In this document: piece by piece, positions 1 through 44,664 of the stretch
Layout of the letters: every line of letters starts with the position of its first letter
Numbering within the stretch: position 1 is the first letter of the stretch
From: a phage
DNA length: 44,664 nucleotides
Sequence record: OZ077758.1
Reading direction: 5' to 3' (one strand)
Translations under genes and position numbers: made by a program
Notes under the pieces: generated by a model
What the model saw: only the letters and a program-made list of their open reading frames with translations
What the model was told of the DNA's origin: nothing
The model's database searches: none

Positions 1-552
1 ATGGCAGAAATCAAAGTTAAGGGCCGACGCGCCAAACTGGACGGACGAGTAGCAGTAACCCCGCGCCGTAAACCAGGCGAGCAAACCGAGCATACCAATC
101 TCGGACCTGAAATCGAGTACGGAAAGCGCCGTAAAGGCGGCAAATGTGGACGCCCTACTGACTACCGATCCGTTTACTGCGACCAGCTTCGTCGCTATTT
201 CGCCGACGCCGACGCCTGGCAGGTCAACTACTCCGATAAAGGCGCTGCGCAGGTAATCCCTCGCAACAAAATGCCAACCTTCGGCAGATTTGCCGCGGAA
301 ATCGGTGTGGGCGTCGCTTGCCTGTATCGCTGGGCGCGCGCACATGAGGAGTTCGCCGAGGCGATGGCGGACGCTATGGAATTGCAGAAAACTTTCCTGA
401 TGGAGGCTGGCGGCGTAACCATCGCGGCGGGCTTCGCTACGTTCCTGCTTAAAGCCAACCACGGCGTACGCGACGATATCCCACTGGATGACGACGAAGA
501 TGATAACGGCGACGTCGTTGTCGAACCTACCGGCAAAGGCCAGGGCGAATAA
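1..552 (+). CDS. terminase small subunit (putative)
   Basis: 183-aa ORF directly upstream of the large terminase with TAATG overlap; basic N-terminal half and acidic C-terminal tail (DDDEDDNGD); call is positional. Confidence 0.5.
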   Translation: MAEIKVKGRRAKLDGRVAVTPRRKPGEQTEHTNLGPEIEYGKRRKGGKCGRPTDYRSVYCDQLRRYFADADAWQVNYSDKGAAQVIPRNKMPTFGRFAAEIGVGVACLYRWARAHEEFAEAMADAMELQKTFLMEAGGVTIAAGFATFLLKANHGVRDDIPLDDDEDDNGDVVVEPTGKGQGE

Positions 553-5769: not shown

Positions 5770-5798
5770 TTTTGTGTCCTCGTTGTTGGTGTGCAACC

Positions 5799-5827
5799 AA
5801 TATATGCAACCAATACGAGGATTGCAA
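5799..5827 (-). promoter_or_regulatory. sigma70-like promoter for the minus-strand moron
   Basis: minus strand reads TTGCAA - 17 bp (TCCTCGTATTGGTTGCA) - TATATT about 30 nt upstream of ATG; two direct copies of GCAACCAAT at 5793..5801 and 5806..5814. Confidence 0.45.
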
Positions 5828-11384: not shown

Positions 11385-11387
11385 TGA

Positions 11388-11516
11388 AGCGGGACAGGCG
11401 GGACGTCCCGTTTTGTCCCGCCCCTGCAAAACTGCATACCTATTCACTTCCACCGCATAAACTCAAAACGGGACAAGCGGGACGTCCCGTTTTGTCCCGC
11501 CCCTGAAAGGTGCATA
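11388..11516. repeat. two direct copies of a 36-bp GGGAC palindromic element
   Basis: GGGACA(G/A)GCGGGACGTCCCGTTTTGTCCCGCCCCTG at 11391..11426 and 11470..11505 (one mismatch); each contains the 12-bp perfect palindrome CGGGACGTCCCG and 8-bp inverted arms GGCGGGAC / GTCCCGCC. Confidence 0.8.
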
Positions 11517-11540
11517 ACTATTCTAATTTCGTGCATAAAG

Positions 11541-11712
11541 TAAGCGGGACAAAAAGCGGGACAGACAAGGGGCGGGACAAAACGGGACAGCACCCCGTCC
11601 CCGCCAGTGCTGCCGCGGTTTTCAGCCGATCGGGACAGCGGGACAGCACCCCAGTCTTTCAGACTAGACGGGGGTCATCGGCCCCCCTCGTCTGAGACTG
11701 AATAAGGTTTGT
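11541..11712 (+). repeat. GGGACA iteron array plus conserved double-hairpin element (copy A)
   Basis: four GGGACA repeats at spacing 12/16/10, a 34-bp variable block, two more GGGACA, then hairpins AGTCTTTCAGACT and AGACGGGGG..CCCCCCTCGTCT; near-identical to 39596..39772. Confidence 0.8.
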
Positions 11713-21848: not shown

Positions 21849-21927
21849 GTTATCATCTCCTATATTTGGTTGAGTTTTAGTATTACACCTCTCAACCAGG
21901 ATTGCAACCAATTATGAGGATTCAGCT

Positions 21928-25047: not shown

Positions 25048-25069
25048 TGCAACCAACCTATTGGTTGCA
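25048..25069. promoter_or_regulatory. perfect palindromic operator TGCAACCAA-N4-TTGGTTGCA
   Basis: inverted repeat of the TTGGTTGCA motif, overlapping the 3' end of the HAD gene and upstream of gene 24486..24995; adjacent TTGCAAGTGAATTTTGC 17-mer also found at 5822..5838. Confidence 0.55.
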
Positions 25070-26950: not shown

Positions 26951-26979
26951 AATATAATGCAACCAATATGGTTATGCAA
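26951..26979 (-). promoter_or_regulatory. sigma70-like promoter
   Basis: minus strand TTGCAT - 17 bp - TATATT; two direct ATTGGTTGCAT copies (one supplies the -35, one abuts the -10). Confidence 0.5.
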
Positions 26980-26984
26980 CCAAT

Positions 26985-27308
26985 TTACGAATAAAAATTT
27001 GGGTCGCGCGCAACGTCTACCAGATACAGGTTACTAATGCGGTTGCCGTAATGGCCTGGCGTGCGTTGACGGCACACTACGGCATAGCCTGGAGGGATTG
27101 TATTGCCAGTCTCAATAATCCACGCCACGCGTGCGCCGGATAGCGTCTTGCCGTTGCATTCGATACGAGTACCGCCATCGGCAGTGTTAAGGTTGCCGAT
27201 CTTGCAGCCTGTGGACTTCAGGCGAATGACGCCGGTCTTGCTGTCGTAGGAAAAAAGCTGATTGGTCATTGCCACTGAAAAGTCGATGGCTTCAAATGTA
27301 GTATTCAT
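26985..27308 (-). CDS. HNH_3/NUMOD4-like protein with degenerate catalytic residues
   Basis: 107 aa; pattern LSGARVAW..GNTIPPGYAV...GHYGNRISNLYLV resembles HNH_3 homing-endonuclease fold but the canonical first His is replaced; start overlaps methyltransferase stop (ATGA). Confidence 0.45.
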   Translation of the reverse strand: MNTTFEAIDFSVAMTNQLFSYDSKTGVIRLKSTGCKIGNLNTADGGTRIECNGKTLSGARVAWIIETGNTIPPGYAVVCRQRTPGHYGNRISNLYLVDVARDPNFYS

Positions 27309-28000
27309 TTTAAATTTTCCTCATTGACCGCTATCGCGAAGCCGCGCGGGGTGAGCGACCGGATTAATTTTGTGCGGGCAGATTTGCCTCCGAGGCGACT
27401 ATACTGCTTCGAGTACCCTTTTTCAACGAAAACAGGTTTCTTCTCGGGCATACGGAAGCCGTTGCCTGTCCATAAGCAGGTTAGCTTCGGATATGAATCG
27501 CGGGCGTTGATGTATTCCGGGAAGAGCGGGTGTACGTCATCCTCTGGCAGATATCCACCATACTCCCACGGGTCAAACGAGTGGTCCGGCTTACGCCATT
27601 GGGTGGAGAGCACGCTGCGCGGATTCTCAATCATATATGGCACTTCAAAGAAGTCCCCCAGGTAAGCGGCGATCTTCGCGGTGCGCACCGCCTTAAGCTG
27701 AAAGGCTGGGTCTTTTGCACGCTTGCGCGGGAAAGCTGGCGCGCCGCTCACCGCCAGATCAGTACACGGCGGGAATGCATAGATGATATCCGGCGTGCCG
27801 AAATCGCCATTCATCGCGCGGTCCACGAAGTCCAGATCAATAAACTCATTGCGATATCGGATCCCGCGACCATAAATCCGGTAGTCCAGGTACGACCCGT
27901 GGTCGGCTTCGGAGTAGTTGAAGCAATAACACTTATGCCCCATCTCGGCAGCACGCTCAATCATCAAGCCGCTGCCGTCAAATAATGACCAGATAATCAT
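27305..28000 (-). CDS. compact DNA cytosine-5 methyltransferase-like protein
   Basis: 231 aa; motif I SLFDGSG, motif IV FPPC with downstream SGA, motif VI-like ENP; much shorter than typical C5-methyltransferases. Confidence 0.55.
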   Translation of the reverse strand: MIIWSLFDGSGLMIERAAEMGHKCYCFNYSEADHGSYLDYRIYGRGIRYRNEFIDLDFVDRAMNGDFGTPDIIYAFPPCTDLAVSGAPAFPRKRAKDPAFQLKAVRTAKIAAYLGDFFEVPYMIENPRSVLSTQWRKPDHSFDPWEYGGYLPEDDVHPLFPEYINARDSYPKLTCLWTGNGFRMPEKKPVFVEKGYSKQYSRLGGKSARTKLIRSLTPRGFAIAVNEENLK

Positions 28001-29892: not shown

Positions 29893-29921
29893 AATATACC
29901 GCTACGCGACCAATTCAGCAA
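29893..29921 (-). promoter_or_regulatory. sigma70-like internal promoter
   Basis: minus strand TTGCTG - 17 bp - TATATT with ATTGGTTGC at the -35; lies inside the 3' end of the VRR-NUC gene. Confidence 0.4.
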
Positions 29922-30180
29922 CCAATAAATCACAGTCGGCTATGTTGTCGATAACGCGAACGTCCGCACCGCGGCGGGCCATCCGCTCATGTTCTCGTAC
30001 CTGGTGCGGCTTCGGTTTGCCTCCGGGGCGCTTCACTTCGACGAAAACTATTCTGCCGTTGATGATGATGATCAGATCTGGCGCACCTGCGCGCCCCTCC
30101 CAAGCCACTTTGCGGCAGAATCCGCCTACCGCTTTCACCCGTCGCATCAGGTGACTTTGAATCTTGCCCTCTGGTGTCAT
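29902..30180 (-). CDS. VRR-NUC domain nuclease
   Basis: 92 aa from ATG 30180 overlapping polymerase stop; motifs GAPDLIII and VFVEVKRPGGK..Q. Confidence 0.7.
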   Translation of the reverse strand: MTPEGKIQSHLMRRVKAVGGFCRKVAWEGRAGAPDLIIIINGRIVFVEVKRPGGKPKPHQVREHERMARRGADVRVIDNIADCDLLVAELVA

Positions 30181-32471
30181 TATTTCCTGTACCTGTACAT
30201 AATGTCGCCTTCCGCGGCAAGCGGGAAGCCTTTCGCCCAAATAGGCAGGTTGCACATCAGCGCGCACAATTCCTCGGTAGTGTAGTCGTCGGTATCCGGC
30301 ACTTCGGTTATCAGTTCATCGTGTACGGACAGTACGATCTCATACCCCGCAGCTTCAACGCCCGGCATGGACCATGCGAGGATATCGCGGCACAGCGCCT
30401 GCACGATGTTTTCCGTGAGTTTGCCGCCGTAGGTGTACTGGAAGCCCCACTGGCGGGTCGTCTGATTCTCGCCCTGATATTTAATGCGGGTGCTGGTGCG
30501 TTTCTTGCCAGTATCTTCGTCGATCTCGGTAGTGACAGACAGCGCGATGCCCGGATAACTCATAATACGCCCTGAAGGCAACTCAATTTTCAACCACCAC
30601 CCCGCGGCGTTCGGGTCGTCGCGTTCCTCGTCGAAGGTTGGGTCATGCTTCGCCTTCGTGCGGACTATCTTGAGCGCTTTCTTACCATCCGGGCGAACGT
30701 TCGCGCCAGCCCAGTACGCTTTGCCAGGATTGCGGATTGCACACAACACCGCGTCCTCAAGCTCGGCCCAAAAGGCTACCGTCTTCGGGTGCGCCTCTCG
30801 CCACATGCGTTTAATCGCATCACACGTAAGCCATACGTTTTTCGGCAGTATGTAAGTCGGGCGCTCGTCCTTCTTGCCAGGCTTCGGCGGTCGCTTCGCT
30901 TCGTTAATGCGGGCGTACTCATAACCCCGTTTAGCCGCTGCCCAAATGTGATCGGGGAATGTGCCCTTCATGACGTCCGCCATCGCGTAAAGGTCGAGGC
31001 CCAGGTTTTTAGCGAACTGCAAGAACGCAGCCACGCCGCCGCCATAGCCAAGTCCCAACTCACACGCCTTACCAATCTGGCGTAGGTCTTTGCGGTTGGC
31101 TTTAATGTATTCCGGGTCGAGGCCAAACATCTTACCGGCAGTTTCACAATAGATATCGCGACCCGCCCTAAACACCATTAGCGCGGTTTTCTCACCAGCG
31201 ATCCAGGCAAGCCCGCGACCTTCCACGTTAGAATAGTCAGCTACAACAAACTTCTTGCCCTTAGCCGGGATAATGCACCCGCGAACGGTCGAGGCCGTTA
31301 ACTTCGATATGTCATACGCCCAGTGCGCTGTCCCGCGTAACAGGGAGTTGATGCCGTTGGTGAGCATGTGCGACCGGACCCAAAAAGAAACGTCGCTCTC
31401 GCCATCACGGCGCTTAATCTTCCCTTCGTGGTCGTCGCTATACTCGCCGCGCGCCAGGTTTTGCGGCTGGAAGCCTTTGCCCGCCCAGCGTAGCGTGCGT
31501 TTCGCCCCACCATACTGGAGACACCCACGACGGCGACCATCTGCAGATAAGCCATTAACGAGCGGATTGTACTTAGTCGATGCCGTTGATGATGCACCGA
31601 GGCGCATCTCGATAAGCACTTTGCCCTCGTCGGGGAAGTCCGGGTCTTCCAGCAGGTCGTTAAGCGTGGATTTCTGCGCGTTGTGTATTGTGAACGCAGG
31701 CGCGAGGTCGCGCAGCGCTGGCAGGAAGTCATTGCCTGTCAGCTTACCGCCGAAGCGCTCCCATGCTTCTTCCTTCAATTCTTCCTTATGCGCCTGCACC
31801 GCTTTGATCGCGGCGTTCGCCAGGTCAACGTCAACGTAGAAGCCGCGGTCGTTAATCAACTGGTCGATGAGCAGGATTTCATCTTCCTTCGGTGAGTTGC
31901 CCCAGTCCGGTATGCGCCAGTAGACTTCACGCATGGCAACAATATCCAGCGCGGCATAGCGCAGAAATTTGGCCCATTCTTCCGGGTGAGTCTCGCGAGT
32001 GTAGCGGCGTATTTTGTAGGTCTTAGGGGTAGGCTTACAGAATCGTTTAATCAGCGCCTTGCCTGCCTTATCCTTCGCGTGCTCTGCGTCAACGCCCAGC
32101 ACCTGGCACTGCATATCGAGGCTACCGGGCAGCGCGTGGCGAAAGGCCATAATCATGGTGTCTTCGATCTGGCTTACCGGAAGGTCAATACCCCACTTCT
32201 CGCGAATAACCAGGCGGTCAAACAGGAGGCCGTTAGCCATCACTATTTTTGCTTTCTTGCGGGAAACACGGCGGAGCGCCTTGCGCAGTTCACGCGGCAT
32301 TGTTGGGGATTCAGTGGCGTCCCATGTCTGCACGCGGCCCTCGTCGATGGCGTAGGTGCAAATCATAATCTCGGTTGATGGGTGTTCTGCGTAGGCGTAA
32401 GCGCCTACTTTCTTCAGGTCCACCCCGCTAAATGTCTCGGTATCGAGAAACAGGCGTTCGAAGTCTTTCAT
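30180..32471 (-). CDS. DNA polymerase I (family A) with 3'-5' exonuclease domain
   Basis: 763 aa; Exo I DTETFSG, motif A DYSNVEGR, motif B RQIGKACELGLGYGGG, motif C SVHDELI. Confidence 0.9.
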   Translation of the reverse strand: MKDFERLFLDTETFSGVDLKKVGAYAYAEHPSTEIMICTYAIDEGRVQTWDATESPTMPRELRKALRRVSRKKAKIVMANGLLFDRLVIREKWGIDLPVSQIEDTMIMAFRHALPGSLDMQCQVLGVDAEHAKDKAGKALIKRFCKPTPKTYKIRRYTRETHPEEWAKFLRYAALDIVAMREVYWRIPDWGNSPKEDEILLIDQLINDRGFYVDVDLANAAIKAVQAHKEELKEEAWERFGGKLTGNDFLPALRDLAPAFTIHNAQKSTLNDLLEDPDFPDEGKVLIEMRLGASSTASTKYNPLVNGLSADGRRRGCLQYGGAKRTLRWAGKGFQPQNLARGEYSDDHEGKIKRRDGESDVSFWVRSHMLTNGINSLLRGTAHWAYDISKLTASTVRGCIIPAKGKKFVVADYSNVEGRGLAWIAGEKTALMVFRAGRDIYCETAGKMFGLDPEYIKANRKDLRQIGKACELGLGYGGGVAAFLQFAKNLGLDLYAMADVMKGTFPDHIWAAAKRGYEYARINEAKRPPKPGKKDERPTYILPKNVWLTCDAIKRMWREAHPKTVAFWAELEDAVLCAIRNPGKAYWAGANVRPDGKKALKIVRTKAKHDPTFDEERDDPNAAGWWLKIELPSGRIMSYPGIALSVTTEIDEDTGKKRTSTRIKYQGENQTTRQWGFQYTYGGKLTENIVQALCRDILAWSMPGVEAAGYEIVLSVHDELITEVPDTDDYTTEELCALMCNLPIWAKGFPLAAEGDIMYRYRK

Positions 32472-32638
32472 TGCTTTATCCTCACTACGGCGTCAGCGCT
32501 GCCGATCATGGAGAAGATGCCGTCGGACAGGGAGATTTCTTCGCCGTTGTTGCGAATCTCGGCAACTGTGAAATATTCCCCCAGTAGCTTGGACCATACT
32601 TGCATTCCGACTTTTACTTCGCTGGCTTTAATACGCAT
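32468..32638 (-). CDS. small hypothetical protein coupled to polymerase
   Basis: 56-aa ORF hand-translated (not in supplied track); stop overlaps polymerase ATG (ATGA), RBS AGGA. Confidence 0.3.
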   Translation of the reverse strand: MRIKASEVKVGMQVWSKLLGEYFTVAEIRNNGEEISLSDGIFSMIGSADAVVRIKQ

Positions 32639-32653
32639 TTTTCATTGTCCTAT

Positions 32654-32677
32654 TAAAAAGCCCGCATTAAGCGGGCT
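32654..32677 (-). terminator. rho-independent terminator (minus strand) inside early operon
   Basis: minus strand hairpin GCCCGCTTAATGCGGGC followed by TTTTT; between SSB-like gene and polymerase. Confidence 0.65.
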
Positions 32678-32696
32678 TGAATAGTGGGCTTTGCCC

Positions 32697-33476
32697 TTAA
32701 CGGCGGCGACGTTTACGTGGCGCTTCGTCTTCGTCGTCGTCCTCATCTTCGTCATCGCGTGGCTTACGACGTTTGCGAGGTTTTTCATCTTCCTCATCGT
32801 CGTCGTCATCGCGGCGCTTGGATTTCTTGGACTTGCGCGGCTTGTCATCATCATCGTCATCACGACGTTTTGACTTTTTGGACTTGCGCGGTGCTTCGTC
32901 TTCGTCGTCGTTGTCCAGGTCTTCATCGGAGCAAGAAGACCCGCCACCTCCGAAGGCTTCGCCGTCTTCACGGAATCGCAGACCCAGCAAGCCAGCACCG
33001 AGACCCTTGCCGTTGGTATTGTTCCATGCCCAAATATCAAGGGACACGTTGCAATAACAACCGGAGTAGATCTCCTGGCCTTCAATCTCGTCGCCGTCGA
33101 TGGTCAGACCTTGTTCAGTCTGCTTCTCGCCGAGTGACGTTTGAATGATTGGTTGTTTGAACGATTTGGCGTTGATATACAACATGCCTTCGAATTCTTC
33201 GGTTACTTCATCGCGTTCGTCGCCGTCGCGAACTGCACATTCCTTAGAATCCTGGGCGTAGTGGCGGTCCATCCACTTATCGGCATTCTTCTCGGATTTC
33301 AGCTTATCGGTGAGCACTGCGCGCGCTGCCGCTTCCACTTTGTCCACCTGCGGATCTTCTTTATCAAGAAGAATCACGGCACGGTATGCCGGTTTTTGTC
33401 CATCCTGTTTAGGGGTGTCACGTTCCCAAATTTTCAGGAAGCATACGCGCACATTTTTCAGGTTGACTTTAGCCAT
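32697..33476 (-). CDS. putative ssDNA-binding protein (DUF2815-like) with charged repeat tail
   Basis: 259 aa from ATG 33476 (RBS GAGGA); N-terminus MAKVNLKNVRV; C-terminal 70 aa are alternating poly-Asp/Glu and Lys/Arg blocks; position next to Cas4-like nuclease and polymerase. Confidence 0.5.
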   Translation of the reverse strand: MAKVNLKNVRVCFLKIWERDTPKQDGQKPAYRAVILLDKEDPQVDKVEAAARAVLTDKLKSEKNADKWMDRHYAQDSKECAVRDGDERDEVTEEFEGMLYINAKSFKQPIIQTSLGEKQTEQGLTIDGDEIEGQEIYSGCYCNVSLDIWAWNNTNGKGLGAGLLGLRFREDGEAFGGGGSSCSDEDLDNDDEDEAPRKSKKSKRRDDDDDDKPRKSKKSKRRDDDDDEEDEKPRKRRKPRDDEDEDDDEDEAPRKRRRR

Positions 33477-33541
33477 TTTCCAATTCCTCATTTTCACATG
33501 TATCGGGGTTATTGGAAGCCACCCCGTTCGGCTTGGTTGCT

Positions 33542-33570
33542 AATCTACTTGGTTGCGCCTAAGCGGTCAA
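33542..33570 (-). promoter_or_regulatory. sigma70-like promoter upstream of SSB-like gene
   Basis: minus strand TTGACC - 17 bp - TAGATT; two TTGGTTGC copies on + strand at 33533..33540 and 33549..33556. Confidence 0.4.
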
Positions 33571-33809
33571 GCATTTTCATTAAAAAGATTTCTGGTAACG
33601 TAGTTGGTCGCGTTCTCGATCCAGCTTAACGGCGGGCGGTTAATGTTCTTCTCCACCCAATCGACGGCCGCTTCGCTATAACCGTCATCCAGCCAGCGGG
33701 TCGGATGGCGAATCATCCACGCCACCATTAACACGCCTTGCACGCAATGCAGGATAAAGCCCAGCGCGCCGAGCAAAAACATCAATAAGATTGCGAATAC
33801 TTTATTCAT
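33567..33809 (-). CDS. small membrane protein
   Basis: 80 aa; N-terminal hydrophobic segment. Confidence 0.45.
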   Translation of the reverse strand: MNKVFAILLMFLLGALGFILHCVQGVLMVAWMIRHPTRWLDDGYSEAAVDWVEKNINRPPLSWIENATNYVTRNLFNENA

Positions 33810-35232
33810 TGCTTAAGTCCTCGTCAGTGGCTTCAGACCACGCAGGGCGCGGGTCGTCAATTGGTGCTAATACAGGTTTAGCCGGTGCGCGCGTGATTTT
33901 ATCACACAACTTCGCCCACACTTTCGGCTTCTCGTCCTTAAGTACCTTCTCGGCATCCGTAGGACTGAGCAATGTTTCTTTGTACATCACATCGCGCTTG
34001 ATCCGGGCCTTCGTGAAGATCTCAATCACTTCGCTCTCGTCCGCCCACTTGCGGATCCCTTCCTTACCGGCAACCATCTTGAGGCCAAGCGATTCGCCAT
34101 CGCCCGCCATAACCGCCTTGAATACCGCGGACTCGATAGCCTTGATGTGCTGGCGCATTGCGTCTAAACCTTCATACGCCTTGCGCAGTTCCGCGGCAGT
34201 CATAGCGCCGGGGGCCGCTTCTTTCTTGCCACGCTTCGCACGTCGTGCCGCCTTCCGGGCTTCGCGGGCCATATTGCGATCGTGGTTGGCGCATTCCTCC
34301 TCTGTAGCGATACTCACGTCGTCGCCCAGGTCTTCGTCGGTTGCCGTTGGAGGTGTCATCGTGTCGATTGCGGCCTTAGCGCGGGCACTACACTGATCCG
34401 CAAATCTGCACCACTGGCACGCATCAACGCTCGGTCGGAAGTCGGCACGGGTGAGTCCCTTTTTGCCGCGGGAGTACGCTTCCAGGGCGGCGACAGCACG
34501 CTTGGACGCAAACTTCGCGAATATCTCCAGGGCTTCTACCGTAATATCCCACTCCGACGCCCCGCCGCAATACGGCTGGAAGATAACCAGGCGCACGGTC
34601 GTAATGTCGTACATGGTTTTCAGCTTGCGCAGCAGGCCCAGCGCATACAACATAAGCTGTTTGTTCTCTTTCGCCTCGACCTTATGCCGCCCGGTCTTCA
34701 GGTCGCCAACAATCAGCATGTACGTCCCATCGGTCTTTTTCATGACCATGACCATATCGGCAGTACCGAACGTTTTAATCCTGTTGCCGTCGATCTCGTA
34801 GCCTGAGTGAAGGACGCGGGTCAGATCGGCGCGCATCTCAAGCTGAACAAACTCCGCCACTTCGAGGAGCGGTCGCCAGTGGTCGATGTATGCGTCGCAC
34901 TGTTTCACCATGTCGTCGTTGACCAGTACGCCGCCTTTCGGTGCTTTCGGGTGCGCCTTTACCGGCCCCTTACCTTCGTTCTCGACGTAGCACCCTTTGT
35001 ACGTCTTAGCGGTTATCAGCTTCTCACCGGCAATGATGCGGTTGAGCACGACTTCCGATACGGTGTGCATACTCGTACCGTTAATAGCCGCTTGCCCGGA
35101 TTCGTTCGGTATCCCTTGTTCTACCACCAGGGCCGCGGGACACCCCATCCATTTTTTAGCACCGGACGGGCCGAGTAATGAGTGTTCCGTGTTGCTACCG
35201 GATTGTGTTTTGCGCTTCGGTTTAATCGCCAT
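33802..35232 (-). CDS. PD-(D/E)xK nuclease with Cas4-like Fe-S cysteines (DUF2800-like)
   Basis: 476 aa from ATG 35232; GDLKTG...VEAKENKQLMLY (D, ExK, QxxxY) plus one N-terminal Cys and C-terminal CQWC...C cluster; long charged C-terminal extension. Confidence 0.65.
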   Translation of the reverse strand: MAIKPKRKTQSGSNTEHSLLGPSGAKKWMGCPAALVVEQGIPNESGQAAINGTSMHTVSEVVLNRIIAGEKLITAKTYKGCYVENEGKGPVKAHPKAPKGGVLVNDDMVKQCDAYIDHWRPLLEVAEFVQLEMRADLTRVLHSGYEIDGNRIKTFGTADMVMVMKKTDGTYMLIVGDLKTGRHKVEAKENKQLMLYALGLLRKLKTMYDITTVRLVIFQPYCGGASEWDITVEALEIFAKFASKRAVAALEAYSRGKKGLTRADFRPSVDACQWCRFADQCSARAKAAIDTMTPPTATDEDLGDDVSIATEEECANHDRNMAREARKAARRAKRGKKEAAPGAMTAAELRKAYEGLDAMRQHIKAIESAVFKAVMAGDGESLGLKMVAGKEGIRKWADESEVIEIFTKARIKRDVMYKETLLSPTDAEKVLKDEKPKVWAKLCDKITRAPAKPVLAPIDDPRPAWSEATDEDLSNE

Positions 35233-35850: not shown

Positions 35851-36363
35851 TTAATCTTCCAGTTCGAAATAGGTTTCGACGATTTCTTTTAGCTCTGTGT
35901 GGAAGTCTTCGACGTCGTCATCTTCCAGCTTGGCGATTGATTTGATCTCGAACGATTCCAGCAGGTCGTCGAATTCGTCGTTCGCATCGTCGTCATCGCC
36001 ACCGGCGATAATAGCGGCATACTGTTTGATTTCGTCGCGCATCTCCGCCAGCGGATCGGCATCTTTCTTACCTTTGCCTTTCGCCGGTGCTTTCTTAGCC
36101 TTAGCCGGTTTTTCGTCTTCGGCGTCTTCGTCGTCGTCATCTTCTACGACTTCTTTTTTGGCCTTACCTTTCGCCGGTGCTTTTTTAGTTTTCGCCGGTG
36201 CTTCGTCTTCGGCGTCGTCATCTTCTACGACTTCTTTTTTGGCCTTAGACGGCTTCTTGTCTTCCTGCTTACCAACGGCAGCGCCAACGGTTTCATAATG
36301 TTTAGCGATGGTTTCCAGTGCTACTACGCCGCGAGTGATCAGGTTTACGATTTGCTCAAACAT
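35851..36363 (-). CDS. acidic repeat protein, first gene of leftward early operon
   Basis: 170 aa from ATG 36363 (RBS GGAGA); two tandem ~23-aa repeats (KKEVVEDDD.EDE.PAK.KKAPAKGK) from a ~69-bp nucleotide repeat; poly-Asp C-terminal half. Confidence 0.6.
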   Translation of the reverse strand: MFEQIVNLITRGVVALETIAKHYETVGAAVGKQEDKKPSKAKKEVVEDDDAEDEAPAKTKKAPAKGKAKKEVVEDDDDEDAEDEKPAKAKKAPAKGKGKKDADPLAEMRDEIKQYAAIIAGGDDDDANDEFDDLLESFEIKSIAKLEDDDVEDFHTELKEIVETYFELED

Positions 36364-36559
36364 GGTACATCTCCGATTGGTTAAGTTTAGGTGTCGGCAG
36401 TTAACTTCGTCGGTGGCCTTAACATATTGCCAGGTTACGCGTTCTCCCGTTCGGGTAGTGGACCTGGTTATATAATCACGGTTGGGAATCCTGACACTTC
36501 GATCCGGCCCCTGCGTTGCCCCTCTCCAGTTTGCGTCCTGCATCCTGTCGACGGAGTGA

Positions 36560-36589
36560 ATAATAGATTGGTTGCAGGATGGGTGTCAA
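36560..36589 (-). promoter_or_regulatory. strong sigma70-like early promoter (leftward)
   Basis: minus strand TTGACA - 18 bp - TATTAT with GCAACCAAT in the spacer next to the -10. Confidence 0.55.
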
Positions 36590-37106: not shown

Positions 37107-39323
37107 ATGAGCTTGATTAAATTCGCTGTAACAAAACCCGCTAAAAAAGGCGAAAAAGCCAGGGCGGAGAACTTCCAGATGACGACCGATGAGTTTTTCG
37201 AATTTATCAAAGATGCGAAAGAAATCTCCTCGGTGCATATCAACAAGACGGAAGATAAAGCCGAGTATGCGCGCCGCAAGCGTAAGGCCGATGGCATCGT
37301 GGCGTATACCAGTGACGGATTGCGTCGTAAGACCAGTGCGGTGGACCGCTCGATCCTGTTCTTTGATATTGACCGCACCGACACCCGCACCCTGCGCCGC
37401 TGCCGTAAGGCGTTCATCGACGCGGGTCTGGAACACGTATTTCACACCACCACCGGCGACCGCCACCCGCTGAAGGGCGGCACGCGTTGCGCCCGTTTCC
37501 TGGTGCTCACTGACAAGCCTGTACCGGCTGAAGACCTGGGCCGCGTCCAGTATGCACTATTACACCAACTGGGTCTGTCAGATGTGGACTTCGACGATTG
37601 CACGAAAGACACAAACCGCCTGATGTACCTGCCACACCAGCAGTCCGTTATTAAGTGCCACTATGGCAAGCGCGCCAATGTGCGTCGTCTACTCCGTCGG
37701 GCGGACAAGCTGGGGGTGGAAAAAGAGGAAGTACGACGCGAACTGACCCAGGGCGATGACGGCGTGGCGGACGGTATTCTGGATTGGTGCTTCCAGGCAG
37801 GATTCGAACCGCTGTCGTCCGGTCGTGGCTATGAAGTACCGTGCCCGAACGAACACCTGCACAGCGGCGAAGGGTCCACCGCGATCATGGTTAAGGATGG
37901 CGAGATCCGTTTCAAGTGTATGCACACCGGCAACGAGTGTTGCTCGGAACTGAACAGACACCAGCACCTGGCGCTACGTCTTATCGGTATCCCGGACCAC
38001 CTGAACGTAGAACCGCACAACATGTCACGTAAGCAAATTGCCGCCATCCTCCCCGGACTGGACGACGAGGAAGTGGAATCGTGCTATGAACATATCGTTG
38101 ATGCGGTCGGTGACGGCGACGAGTACGGCGGATGTACGGACGCAGACCTGGACAACGAGCCGGTTGCACTGTTCAGTAAGCACGACCCGATCATCGAGGG
38201 GTTGATTAACTTCAAATCGACCTGGTATATGGCTGGCGAATCGAACATCGGTAAATCGTTCTACGTGCTGGGACAAATGGGCGCGGTTGCCGCGGGGATT
38301 CCGTTCGGTGGTGCGAAGGTAGTCCAGTCTCATTGCTTCTATTTCGACGCGGAAGGTGGCGAAGCCTCCAACCAGCGTAAGGAAGCATTGCAGATCAAAT
38401 ATGAGCACGACCTCGACAAGCTGCACATTATAGACCTGCAATCACGCGGCTGGGATATCACCAGCAAATCCGGCTTGCGTGAAGTTATCAGCTTTATCAA
38501 CCGCACCGCTAACGGCGAACCGGTTGGCCTGGTGGCGTTCGACTCACTCAACCAGACTGTTGCGCTGCGGTCCGCCGATGCTAAGCCGTTCGACGAGAAC
38601 AACGCCAGCGATATGGGTGAAGTGGTCAAGGCGCTGAAGGCCATCGCGGAAAATACAGGCGGCAGTGCGGGCGTCATCCACCACCCGGCTAAAGGTGCGA
38701 ACGGCAGCAGAACGCCACGCGGGTCCGGCGCGCTTCATGGTGCTGTTGATTCCGCGTTCTTCCTGGAGCAACCGGACGACAACCAGCCCGGACAATTGAA
38801 CCTGTACCATGAGAAGGCACGTAACGGCATCAAGCAAGCGCCGCGCGGATTCGTCCTTCTCAAGTGCAAGGTTAAGGTGGATCTCCGCAAGTCCGAGGCG
38901 TTCGAAGCCCACCAGTCCACCAGCACCGGGCCGGACTTCGGTGATGTGGTTGCCGGTTGGGACGTCAAGCCAATTGCCTCCACGCCACGCGACGAGACTC
39001 TTTACCTCGTACCGGTCGCCCTGGCACCGTTCGCTATTGAACAGGCGAAGGCCGCGGGCAAGGCCGCAGTTAAGGAAGAGAACGCCGCGGGGCCGCGCAA
39101 CGAAAAAGAGAAAGTGCTTTATGCGGCACTGGAAAAACTGATGGAAGATAACCCGGACCATACCGGATTCAGTAAATCGGCAATTGTCCGCCAGGCTGGA
39201 CTGGCAAAAGGTGGCACATCGACGAAGGCAATCGACGATATGGTAGAGCGCGGAGTGTTAGGTTTTTATACCGATCCGCACAAAAAGGTGGCACATCGAC
39301 GAAGGCAATCGACGATATGGTAG
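37107..39323 (+). CDS. bifunctional DNA primase (AEP-type) / helicase, C-terminus altered by tandem duplication
   Basis: 738 aa; N-terminal AEP-like motifs (LFFDIDRTD, TTTGDRHP), Cys/His cluster, C-terminal RecA-fold ATPase with Walker A GESNIGKS and Walker B VAFDSL; reading frame is shifted by a 77-bp duplication near the 3' end. Confidence 0.75.
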   Translation: MSLIKFAVTKPAKKGEKARAENFQMTTDEFFEFIKDAKEISSVHINKTEDKAEYARRKRKADGIVAYTSDGLRRKTSAVDRSILFFDIDRTDTRTLRRCRKAFIDAGLEHVFHTTTGDRHPLKGGTRCARFLVLTDKPVPAEDLGRVQYALLHQLGLSDVDFDDCTKDTNRLMYLPHQQSVIKCHYGKRANVRRLLRRADKLGVEKEEVRRELTQGDDGVADGILDWCFQAGFEPLSSGRGYEVPCPNEHLHSGEGSTAIMVKDGEIRFKCMHTGNECCSELNRHQHLALRLIGIPDHLNVEPHNMSRKQIAAILPGLDDEEVESCYEHIVDAVGDGDEYGGCTDADLDNEPVALFSKHDPIIEGLINFKSTWYMAGESNIGKSFYVLGQMGAVAAGIPFGGAKVVQSHCFYFDAEGGEASNQRKEALQIKYEHDLDKLHIIDLQSRGWDITSKSGLREVISFINRTANGEPVGLVAFDSLNQTVALRSADAKPFDENNASDMGEVVKALKAIAENTGGSAGVIHHPAKGANGSRTPRGSGALHGAVDSAFFLEQPDDNQPGQLNLYHEKARNGIKQAPRGFVLLKCKVKVDLRKSEAFEAHQSTSTGPDFGDVVAGWDVKPIASTPRDETLYLVPVALAPFAIEQAKAAGKAAVKEENAAGPRNEKEKVLYAALEKLMEDNPDHTGFSKSAIVRQAGLAKGGTSTKAIDDMVERGVLGFYTDPHKKVAHRRRQSTIW

Positions 39324-39359
39324 AGCGCGGAGTGTTAGGTTTTTATACCGATCCGCACA
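39206..39359. repeat. perfect 77-bp tandem duplication
   Basis: 39206..39282 and 39283..39359 are identical (AAAAGGTGGCACATCGACGAAGGCAATCGACGATATGGTAGAGCGCGGAGTGTTAGGTTTTTATACCGATCCGCACA). Confidence 0.9.
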
Positions 39360-39457
39360 CCGGGGCCATATATGGGTCGTCGAATATCGTCATCAAAACG
39401 AATATACCCATCACGCTTTCGGCGACCGATGACGACCTGAAAGATTAATTTGTGCGC

Positions 39458-39560
39458 GTATTGGTTGCCGATATGGGAATTCCCATATCGCTAAAAGATT
39501 AAATTTTGCGCGCATTGGTTGCCATTTTGGGTGTTTTTATCAGGTCGTATTGGTTGCCGT
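39458..39560. promoter_or_regulatory. three spaced ATTGGTTGCC sites plus 20-bp perfect palindrome
   Basis: ATTGGTTGCC at 39460..39469, 39514..39523 and 39549..39558; GATATGGGAATTCCCATATC palindrome at 39470..39489. Confidence 0.6.
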
Positions 39561-39595: not shown

Positions 39596-39772
39596 CTGCA
39601 TAAAACAAACGGGACAAAAAGCGGGACAAACAAGGGGCGGGACAAAGCGGGACAGCACCCCCGTCCCGCCCCGGATGACGCGGCCTGGAGAGGAGCGGGA
39701 CAGCGGGACAGCACCCCAGTCTTTCAGACTAGACGGGGGTCAGTGGCCCCCCTCGTCTGAGACTGAATAAAA
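39596..39772 (+). repeat. GGGACA iteron array plus conserved double-hairpin element (copy B)
   Basis: same architecture as 11541..11712; flanks nearly identical, central 34-bp block diverged at about half the positions with length conserved; preceded by AT-rich segment 39565..39610. Confidence 0.8.
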
Positions 39773-39925
39773 TCCGGGGATTGCAAAATACACGGCAGCA
39801 TGATGCGAAGTGCGGTCGTAGGTGAACTAGGCAACCAATGCGAGTTGCATTATGCGAAGTGAAAAATGCAGTTTGCAGTCACAGCGGATAGCGATCAACT
39901 TTTTCATGCGCGTGATTAATATTGG

Positions 39926-39954
39926 TTGCACCCCGCCTGGCACCCTGCTATATT
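39926..39954 (+). promoter_or_regulatory. sigma70-like promoter
   Basis: TTGCAC - 17 bp - TATATT, built from two ATTGGTTGCAC copies; leader GGTTGCACACCAACATGAGGA also found at the moron promoter. Confidence 0.5.
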
Positions 39955-39982
39955 GGTTGCACACCAACATGAGGACTGAACG

Positions 39983-40288
39983 ATGAAAGCGATTATCTGG
40001 AATTACGCATTAGCCGTGGCAAAGCTGTACGAAGCGAAACACACAAACGGCAACGCAGACGAAGCGCGCGAGGTCGTCATCCTGACCCAGCAGGCAATCA
40101 TGGACGCGTTCGACGATATGTTTGCCAGCCTGGACGAACTGGAACCGCTGCGTGTGGCAATCTGCGAATATGCGATGGCATTTGCCCGTGAGCGCCTGGC
40201 GTATCGTTTCGGGATCGGCGATAAGGCAGTGACAAACGTCGCCCGGATTAAAGCCCAGCGCGAACTATTCGCGCAGCTTGCGAAATAA
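39983..40288 (+). CDS. hypothetical protein
   Basis: 101-aa ORF with RBS GAGGA. Confidence 0.55.
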   Translation: MKAIIWNYALAVAKLYEAKHTNGNADEAREVVILTQQAIMDAFDDMFASLDELEPLRVAICEYAMAFARERLAYRFGIGDKAVTNVARIKAQRELFAQLAK

Positions 40289-40297
40289 GGGGCCAAA

Positions 40298-40567
40298 ATG
40301 GGCCGTAGACGAGAAAAACAGCTTTCGTGGCATATTCCCCTGCATTGCATACGAATATGGGCTAAGAATGCGGTTGAGGGCGATTCTGTGTTCTGGTGCT
40401 ATCGAGACGACGTAAAGCCACTGACGCAGACTCGCTACTTGCACCAGTTCGCAGCACAACACGATTTCAGGGTGCGGACTTCCTTGCAACCAATGGGAAT
40501 ACGTATTACATTACGCCGGAAGCCCGCCATTGAGCGGGTAGGCAAACACTGGAGACTGAGCAGATGA
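40298..40567 (+). CDS. hypothetical protein
   Basis: 89-aa Arg-rich ORF. Confidence 0.4.
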   Translation: MGRRREKQLSWHIPLHCIRIWAKNAVEGDSVFWCYRDDVKPLTQTRYLHQFAAQHDFRVRTSLQPMGIRITLRRKPAIERVGKHWRLSR

Positions 40568-44566: not shown

Positions 44567-44595
44567 TTGGTGGGCTTTTTTGTGCCTGTTATAAT
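44567..44595 (+). promoter_or_regulatory. sigma70-like promoter reading across window end toward terminase
   Basis: TTGGTG - 17 bp - TATAAT (perfect -10); joining the window ends places AAAGGG as RBS about 9 nt before the ATG at position 1. Confidence 0.5.
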
Positions 44596-44664
44596 CCCCC
44601 TTAGATGGCAGGGCCGTCTCCTATGTTGCCGATGGTCGGCGCATATGTACAAAAGGGCTTATAT

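Follow-up and report, generated by a model that had tools for sequence, protein, structure and literature searches.

Does the perfect 77-bp tandem duplication that interrupts the 3' end of the primase-helicase gene in sequence record OZ077758.1 belong to the phage, or was it introduced while the record was being made? The window, by which we mean the whole stretch of DNA analysed here (44,664 nt), corresponds to a complete genome of the genus Dhillonvirus, i.e., the HK578/SO-1-like siphoviruses of Escherichia coli. The original prediction had left three readings of the duplication unranked (a recent duplication, an artefact or a genuine variant), and the evidence now strongly favours the artefact on account of the k-mer length of the repeat, the rotation of the record and the single copy found in relatives. 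We conclude that the 77-bp duplication is very probably a circularisation artefact, namely an untrimmed overlap between the ends of a SPAdes contig, and so an error of the record and not a matter of phage biology. The features involved are the following.

1..3, plus strand: ATG of the small-terminase gene (terS); the first base of the record is the A of this start codon.
37107..39323, plus strand: primase-helicase ORF as recorded, 738 aa, the final 13 residues out of frame.
39206..39282, plus strand: copy 1 of the 77-bp unit, in the native primase-helicase frame, encoding ...(A)KGGTSTKAIDDMVERGVLGFYTDPH.
39283..39359, plus strand: copy 2, with the same 77 bases as copy 1 and facing a 77-column gap in relatives.
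39317..39448, plus strand: 43-aa ORF (MVERGVLGFYTDPHTGAIY...DDDLKD), created solely by the duplication.
39360..39448, plus strand: native 3' end of the primase-helicase gene, 29 codons and a TAA, severed by the extra copy.

The repeat was delimited by Tandem Repeats Finder, which returned positions 39206-39359 as a period of 77 with 2.0 copies, 100% matches, no indels and a score of 308, and by direct string comparison, in which 39206-39282 and 39283-39359 were the same sequence placed head to tail without a spacer; the perfect tandem copy originally claimed at these positions was thereby borne out. The junction between the copies reads ...GATCCGCACA / AAAAGGTGGC..., the slash marking the boundary. 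This pair is the sole perfect tandem duplication of 20-400 bp within the 44,664-nt window, and a perfect repeat of 77 nt cannot have arisen by chance. The left flank ends in ...CTGGC and the right flank opens with CCGGGG; the copies share no further base outward, and in-register microhomology was absent from the ends of the unit (C versus A on the left, C versus A on the right). The site of the repeat bears no relation to gene boundaries, no promoter-like site was found near the junction, and an Rfam search of the window gave no match.

The gene into which the repeat falls (37107-39323) is a replicative primase-helicase of the Dhillonvirus type with a RecA-type AAA_25 helicase core. The Pfam domain AAA_25 was detected at residues 357-531 of the 738-aa ORF (E=2.3e-19), and the product matched phrog_3228, 'replicative helicase-primase', with 1135.8 bits; the alignment to this family stops at position 728 of 766 for the product of the window, which is without positions 729-766, whereas the intact Opt212 homologue spans 3-765. 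The frame is shifted, 77 not being divisible by 3: the native frame is left at the junction between the copies, the protein is truncated after residue 725, and beyond ...YTDPH there follow 13 non-native residues, KKVAHRRRQSTIW, up to the TAG at 39321-39323. When one copy is removed, the gene runs 29 codons past the His to the TAA at 39446-39448 (TGAIYGSSNIVIKTNIPITLSATDDDLKD) and encodes 754 aa, which is the length of the Opt212 homologue. ORF translation thus confirmed the predicted frameshift, the stop at 39323 and the restoration to the TAA at 39446..39448 in the single-copy form; as to the out-of-frame peptide, its length of 13 residues was correct, but the string originally quoted for it showed 12, the junction codon (AAA, lysine) having been omitted.

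What the recorded protein lacks is a well-conserved stretch. The last 134 aa of the restored primase-helicase are 100% identical to those of the relatives L003, L004 and PTXU06, and the 29-codon tail is identical at the protein level in L003, L004, L015, Opt212 and PTXU06, with a DNA divergence of 5-7%. Across 18 sequences, 16 of the 29 codons vary synonymously only and 8 non-synonymously. The lost tail, which the phrog_3228 profile also covers, is under purifying selection and forms a conserved part of an essential replication protein. The 43-aa ORF at 39317-39448, whose start is a Met codon lying within copy 2, is spurious and could be annotated by a gene caller. We also considered that the gene might be naturally split or subject to programmed frameshifting, and rejected both, since in the relatives examined a single uninterrupted ORF passes through the site.

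A comparison of copy number with related genomes had been proposed together with the original prediction, and it gave a uniform answer. The region was matched at 80-95% identity by 160 phage records, nearly all from Dhillonvirus phages of Escherichia or Shigella, and in every match listed the relatives' span was 624 bp versus 701 bp in the window, and so shorter by exactly 77 bp. A probe of 78 nt with the junction at its centre had matches in 161 records; among the matches listed, its halves fell as separate pieces on a single 77-bp stretch, and the junction itself was present in none of these 161 phage records. In the alignment with Opt212 and PaulFeyerabend, copy 1 is paired with the single copy of both phages and the extra copy appears as one clean 77-column gap. 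A single copy was likewise present in 15 of 15 IMG/VR contigs, and with GenBank and IMG/VR taken together all of about 175 relatives appear, by sequence comparison, to carry the unit once.

Wider collections were searched as well. Neither the exact junction nor, by exact search, the restored single-copy sequence was found in IMG/VR, the JGI metagenomes or the GTDB genomes, and the exact 738-aa, restored 754-aa and 43-aa products were not found in a collection of 15 billion proteins. When 10 other long proteins of the window were looked up in the same collection, 7 were unique to it, and the three remaining, highly conserved ones occur elsewhere, in other phages. The phage itself was not among the phage records searched, and E. 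coli genomes and PLSDB contained no match to it. A second matching place in Over9000 was examined as a candidate for another duplication and rejected, as it consisted of short intergenic motif matches only; in PTXU06, no terminal overlaps or k-length tandem repeats were found.

The manner in which the record is opened bears directly on the question. The record begins exactly at the terS ATG, which is a curation choice, and therefore a circular assembly was re-opened after assembly, manually or by a script; its final bases match the ends of the TheodorHerzl and SM_A2 records. Dhillonvirus genomes have been described as circularising on assembly and as oriented with the small terminase first, with headful packaging predicted by PhageTerm (PMC9022532). 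Regarding the quality of the remaining sequence, every other conserved gene is full-length and in a single frame when compared with the annotated CDSs of PTXU06; annotated CDSs were used for this purpose, given that a stop-to-stop frame comparison was too noisy, with non-coding frames matching at 90% DNA identity. In this comparison the primase-helicase gene is the only broken conserved gene of an otherwise clean assembly without indel-type errors.

The duplication could have entered the record as follows. Reads from a headful-packaging, circularly permuted phage would close into a circle, and a de Bruijn assembler (SPAdes, with a largest k of 77) would write this circle linearly, with its first 77 bases equal to its last 77. 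The circle would have been cut arbitrarily inside the primase-helicase gene, at 39206, and the contig ends would begin with AAAAGGTGGCAC... (or its reverse complement). The contig end would then have been joined to the start and the molecule re-opened at the terS ATG, with one copy of the overlap left untrimmed; such a join would bring the 77-mers next to each other, add 77 bases (from 44,587 to 44,664) and shift the frame. The period of the repeat falls among the SPAdes k values (21, 33, 55, 77, 99, 127), and for reads of about 150 nt SPAdes by default goes up to k = 77. The assembler, the k used, the failure to trim and the step from contig to record are what we infer, with SPAdes and k = 77 being read from the repeat length alone.

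There is a direct precedent for such an overlap. Identical 77-bp sequences at both contig extremities of newly assembled, circularly permuted phages have been reported and attributed to the SPAdes algorithm, and the right-most 77-bp copy had to be removed from such contigs (PMC9409062). The present case resembles them in the 77-bp length, the 100% identity and the headful-packaging, circularly permuted phage, as well as in having genes that span the contig ends and a true sequence that requires the removal of one copy. It differs in that the copies are adjacent and internal to the record instead of placed at the contig ends, because the record would have been re-opened at terS before trimming. 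Copy 2 (39283..39359) is most likely the retained contig-end overlap of k = 77, and the stretch to delete. A case in the Phage Annotation Guide is similar in that linearising an apparently circular assembly led to a fault in the record and a false gene frameshift; there, however, true biological terminal repeats had been placed internally, whereas here the repeat would be a by-product of the assembler.

The alternative with the best standing is a genuine and very recent tandem duplication in the sequenced stock, arisen by replication slippage or illegitimate recombination, which we consider unlikely. The sequence at face value supports it, and perfect identity fits a recent event. Genuine tandem duplications in phages that arise by these routes usually show a few bases of microhomology, arbitrary lengths and read support. 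The repeat resembles them in its head-to-tail copies and its identity, which is perfect in recent cases, but its ends show zero microhomology and its length is an assembler k value, so that a real event would have to measure 77 bp by coincidence. Furthermore, the duplication is found neither in the approximately 175 relatives nor in the collections searched, and it removes a selected tail from an essential replication gene. The phage carries annealing and exonuclease genes of its own, through which 77-bp direct repeats would presumably be lost quickly unless selected, and the record is demonstrably rotated, which gives an artefact its opportunity. On the other side, the PTXU06 record has a duplicated block of about 1 kb, so that records of this genus do show duplications, and split expression is conceivable, with an ATG at 39317, 4 nt before the new stop, and a weak GAAGG 11 nt upstream. 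Were the duplication real, the phage would replicate with a primase-helicase without the conserved 29-residue acidic C-terminal tail, a proposition to which we give little credence; the native C-terminal 43 aa would then perhaps be supplied separately from the ATG at 39317, and such a mutant would perhaps have been selected in the laboratory, or else by a host defence able to sense the primase-helicase. The frameshifted 3' end announced in the original prediction stands as a property of the record, and is probably not one of the phage.

A different technical origin, such as manual joining of contig ends, the overlap of another assembler, or a fault of polishing or scaffolding that came to 77 bp by chance, seems very unlikely. 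It shares all the evidence for the untrimmed overlap except the assignment to SPAdes; certain Dhillonvirus genomes were assembled with Geneious and not SPAdes, and the Phage Annotation Guide names misplaced terminal repeats and frameshift assembly errors among the common problems of records. Nevertheless, the overlaps of overlap-layout or long-read assemblers are usually arbitrary in length and often imperfect, exactly 77 bp at 100% identity points to a k-mer graph, and indel-type errors are absent from the remainder of the genome.

The untrimmed-overlap explanation can be compared with a contig in which such an overlap is still visible. IMGVR_UViG_3300045988_011231 (45,178 bp) comes from a different Dhillonvirus, locally 92% identical to the window, and retains an untrimmed, exact 55-nt overlap of its ends, equivalent to positions 39205-39259 of the window and within the primase-helicase gene; closing its circle with one copy of the overlap yields an intact primase-helicase C-terminus. 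The default largest k of metaSPAdes is 55. Both sequences thus have an exact end overlap of k length in the same gene, with starts 1 bp apart, and they differ in that the overlap of the contig is 55 nt, is still terminal and was never rotated. An untrimmed rotation of this contig would yield a comparable 55-bp frameshifting duplication.

The 1-bp coincidence of the two cut sites could reflect the site rather than the assemblers. As a weaker variant, there may be something biological about 39205/39206 that makes independent assemblies break there. In its physical form, a DNA end at this place (a packaging cut or a short terminal repeat), this is hardly credible, in spite of the independent assembly of a related phage being cut 1 bp away, as headful packaging has been reported for the genus, the records of PTXU06 and of UDS3lw, which was analysed with PhageTerm, open at the window equivalent of 39882 and not at 39206, the cuts in five further metagenomic Dhillonvirus contigs lie elsewhere, and a location inside an essential gene would be unusual. 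We also considered the cut site as an extreme of simple k-mer orderings and rejected it: among 89,174 k-mers, the cut k-mer of the window is 314th in lexicographic and 342nd in bytewise order, a low rank due to its beginning with AAAA; it is not the global minimum, and an index-order rule came without clean proof.

With an untrimmed contig-end overlap as the preferred reading, the repeat is real in the record and most likely not in the phage. With 39283-39359 deleted, the genome measures 44,587 bp, the 754-aa primase-helicase is intact and the 43-aa ORF at 39317-39448 disappears; as deposited, the record is 77 bases too long and contains a truncated essential replication protein with a false 13-residue tail. 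The finding holds little biology, and its value lies in the correction of the record, as errors of this kind spread to protein databases, pangenome counts, and frameshift or pseudogene statistics. It also suggests a simple screen for other records: where a genome has been re-opened at a conventional start and contains two perfect tandem copies of a unit as long as a common assembler k (55, 77, 99, 127), an untrimmed overlap should be presumed until reads contradict this.

Other features of related records were observed along the way. In PTXU06 (MK373789.1), at approximately 31986-34059, the adjacent CDS pairs 31986-32995 and 33164-34059 both map to 26988-28000 of the window with 97-99% protein identity, which makes up the duplicated block of about 1 kb in that record. 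PQ843332.1 (Escherichia phage P-GXEC-L2P5) has a length of 88,607 bp, roughly double that of a unit genome in this genus, with three matching places, and may be a concatenated assembly. The records of PTXU06 and UDS3lw open at the identical base (CAGCAGATAGCGATCAAC...), which lies about 100 nt upstream of the ORF at 39983-40288, and position 39882 may be a packaging start shared by the genus and derived from PhageTerm; headful packaging with a preferred pac site was described in the UDS3lw paper.

Further repeats of a different nature were present in the window. A direct repeat of 174 nt with 87% identity occurs 28 kb apart at 11532-11705, upstream of the tape-measure gene, and at 39597-39770, downstream of the primase-helicase gene; CGGGACA units are frequent in it, UDS3lw and PTXU06 both have it conserved, and it had no Rfam match. 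Near it, a 43-nt pair (11387-11429 and 11466-11508) contains the palindrome GGGACGTCCC. Imperfect repeats of 45-90 nt at 32713-32928 and 35954-36256, in minus-strand genes, encode acidic and lysine-rich low-complexity stretches, and the minus-strand ORF at 35851-36543 shows a repeated KKEVVEDDDDEDAEDE...PAKGKAKK. Lastly, the 9-mer ATTGGTTGC occurs 15 times on both strands versus 0.5 expected, a count that no shuffle reached, at 5793-5814, 21904-21912, 25060-25068, 26959-26984, 29918-29926, 36567-36575, 39460-39557, 39831-39960 and 40486-40494. Its sites are mostly intergenic and clustered, with six copies within 500 nt after the primase-helicase stop, often in the form GCGCGYATTGGTTGCC, and it resembles an operator or promoter element specific to the phage.
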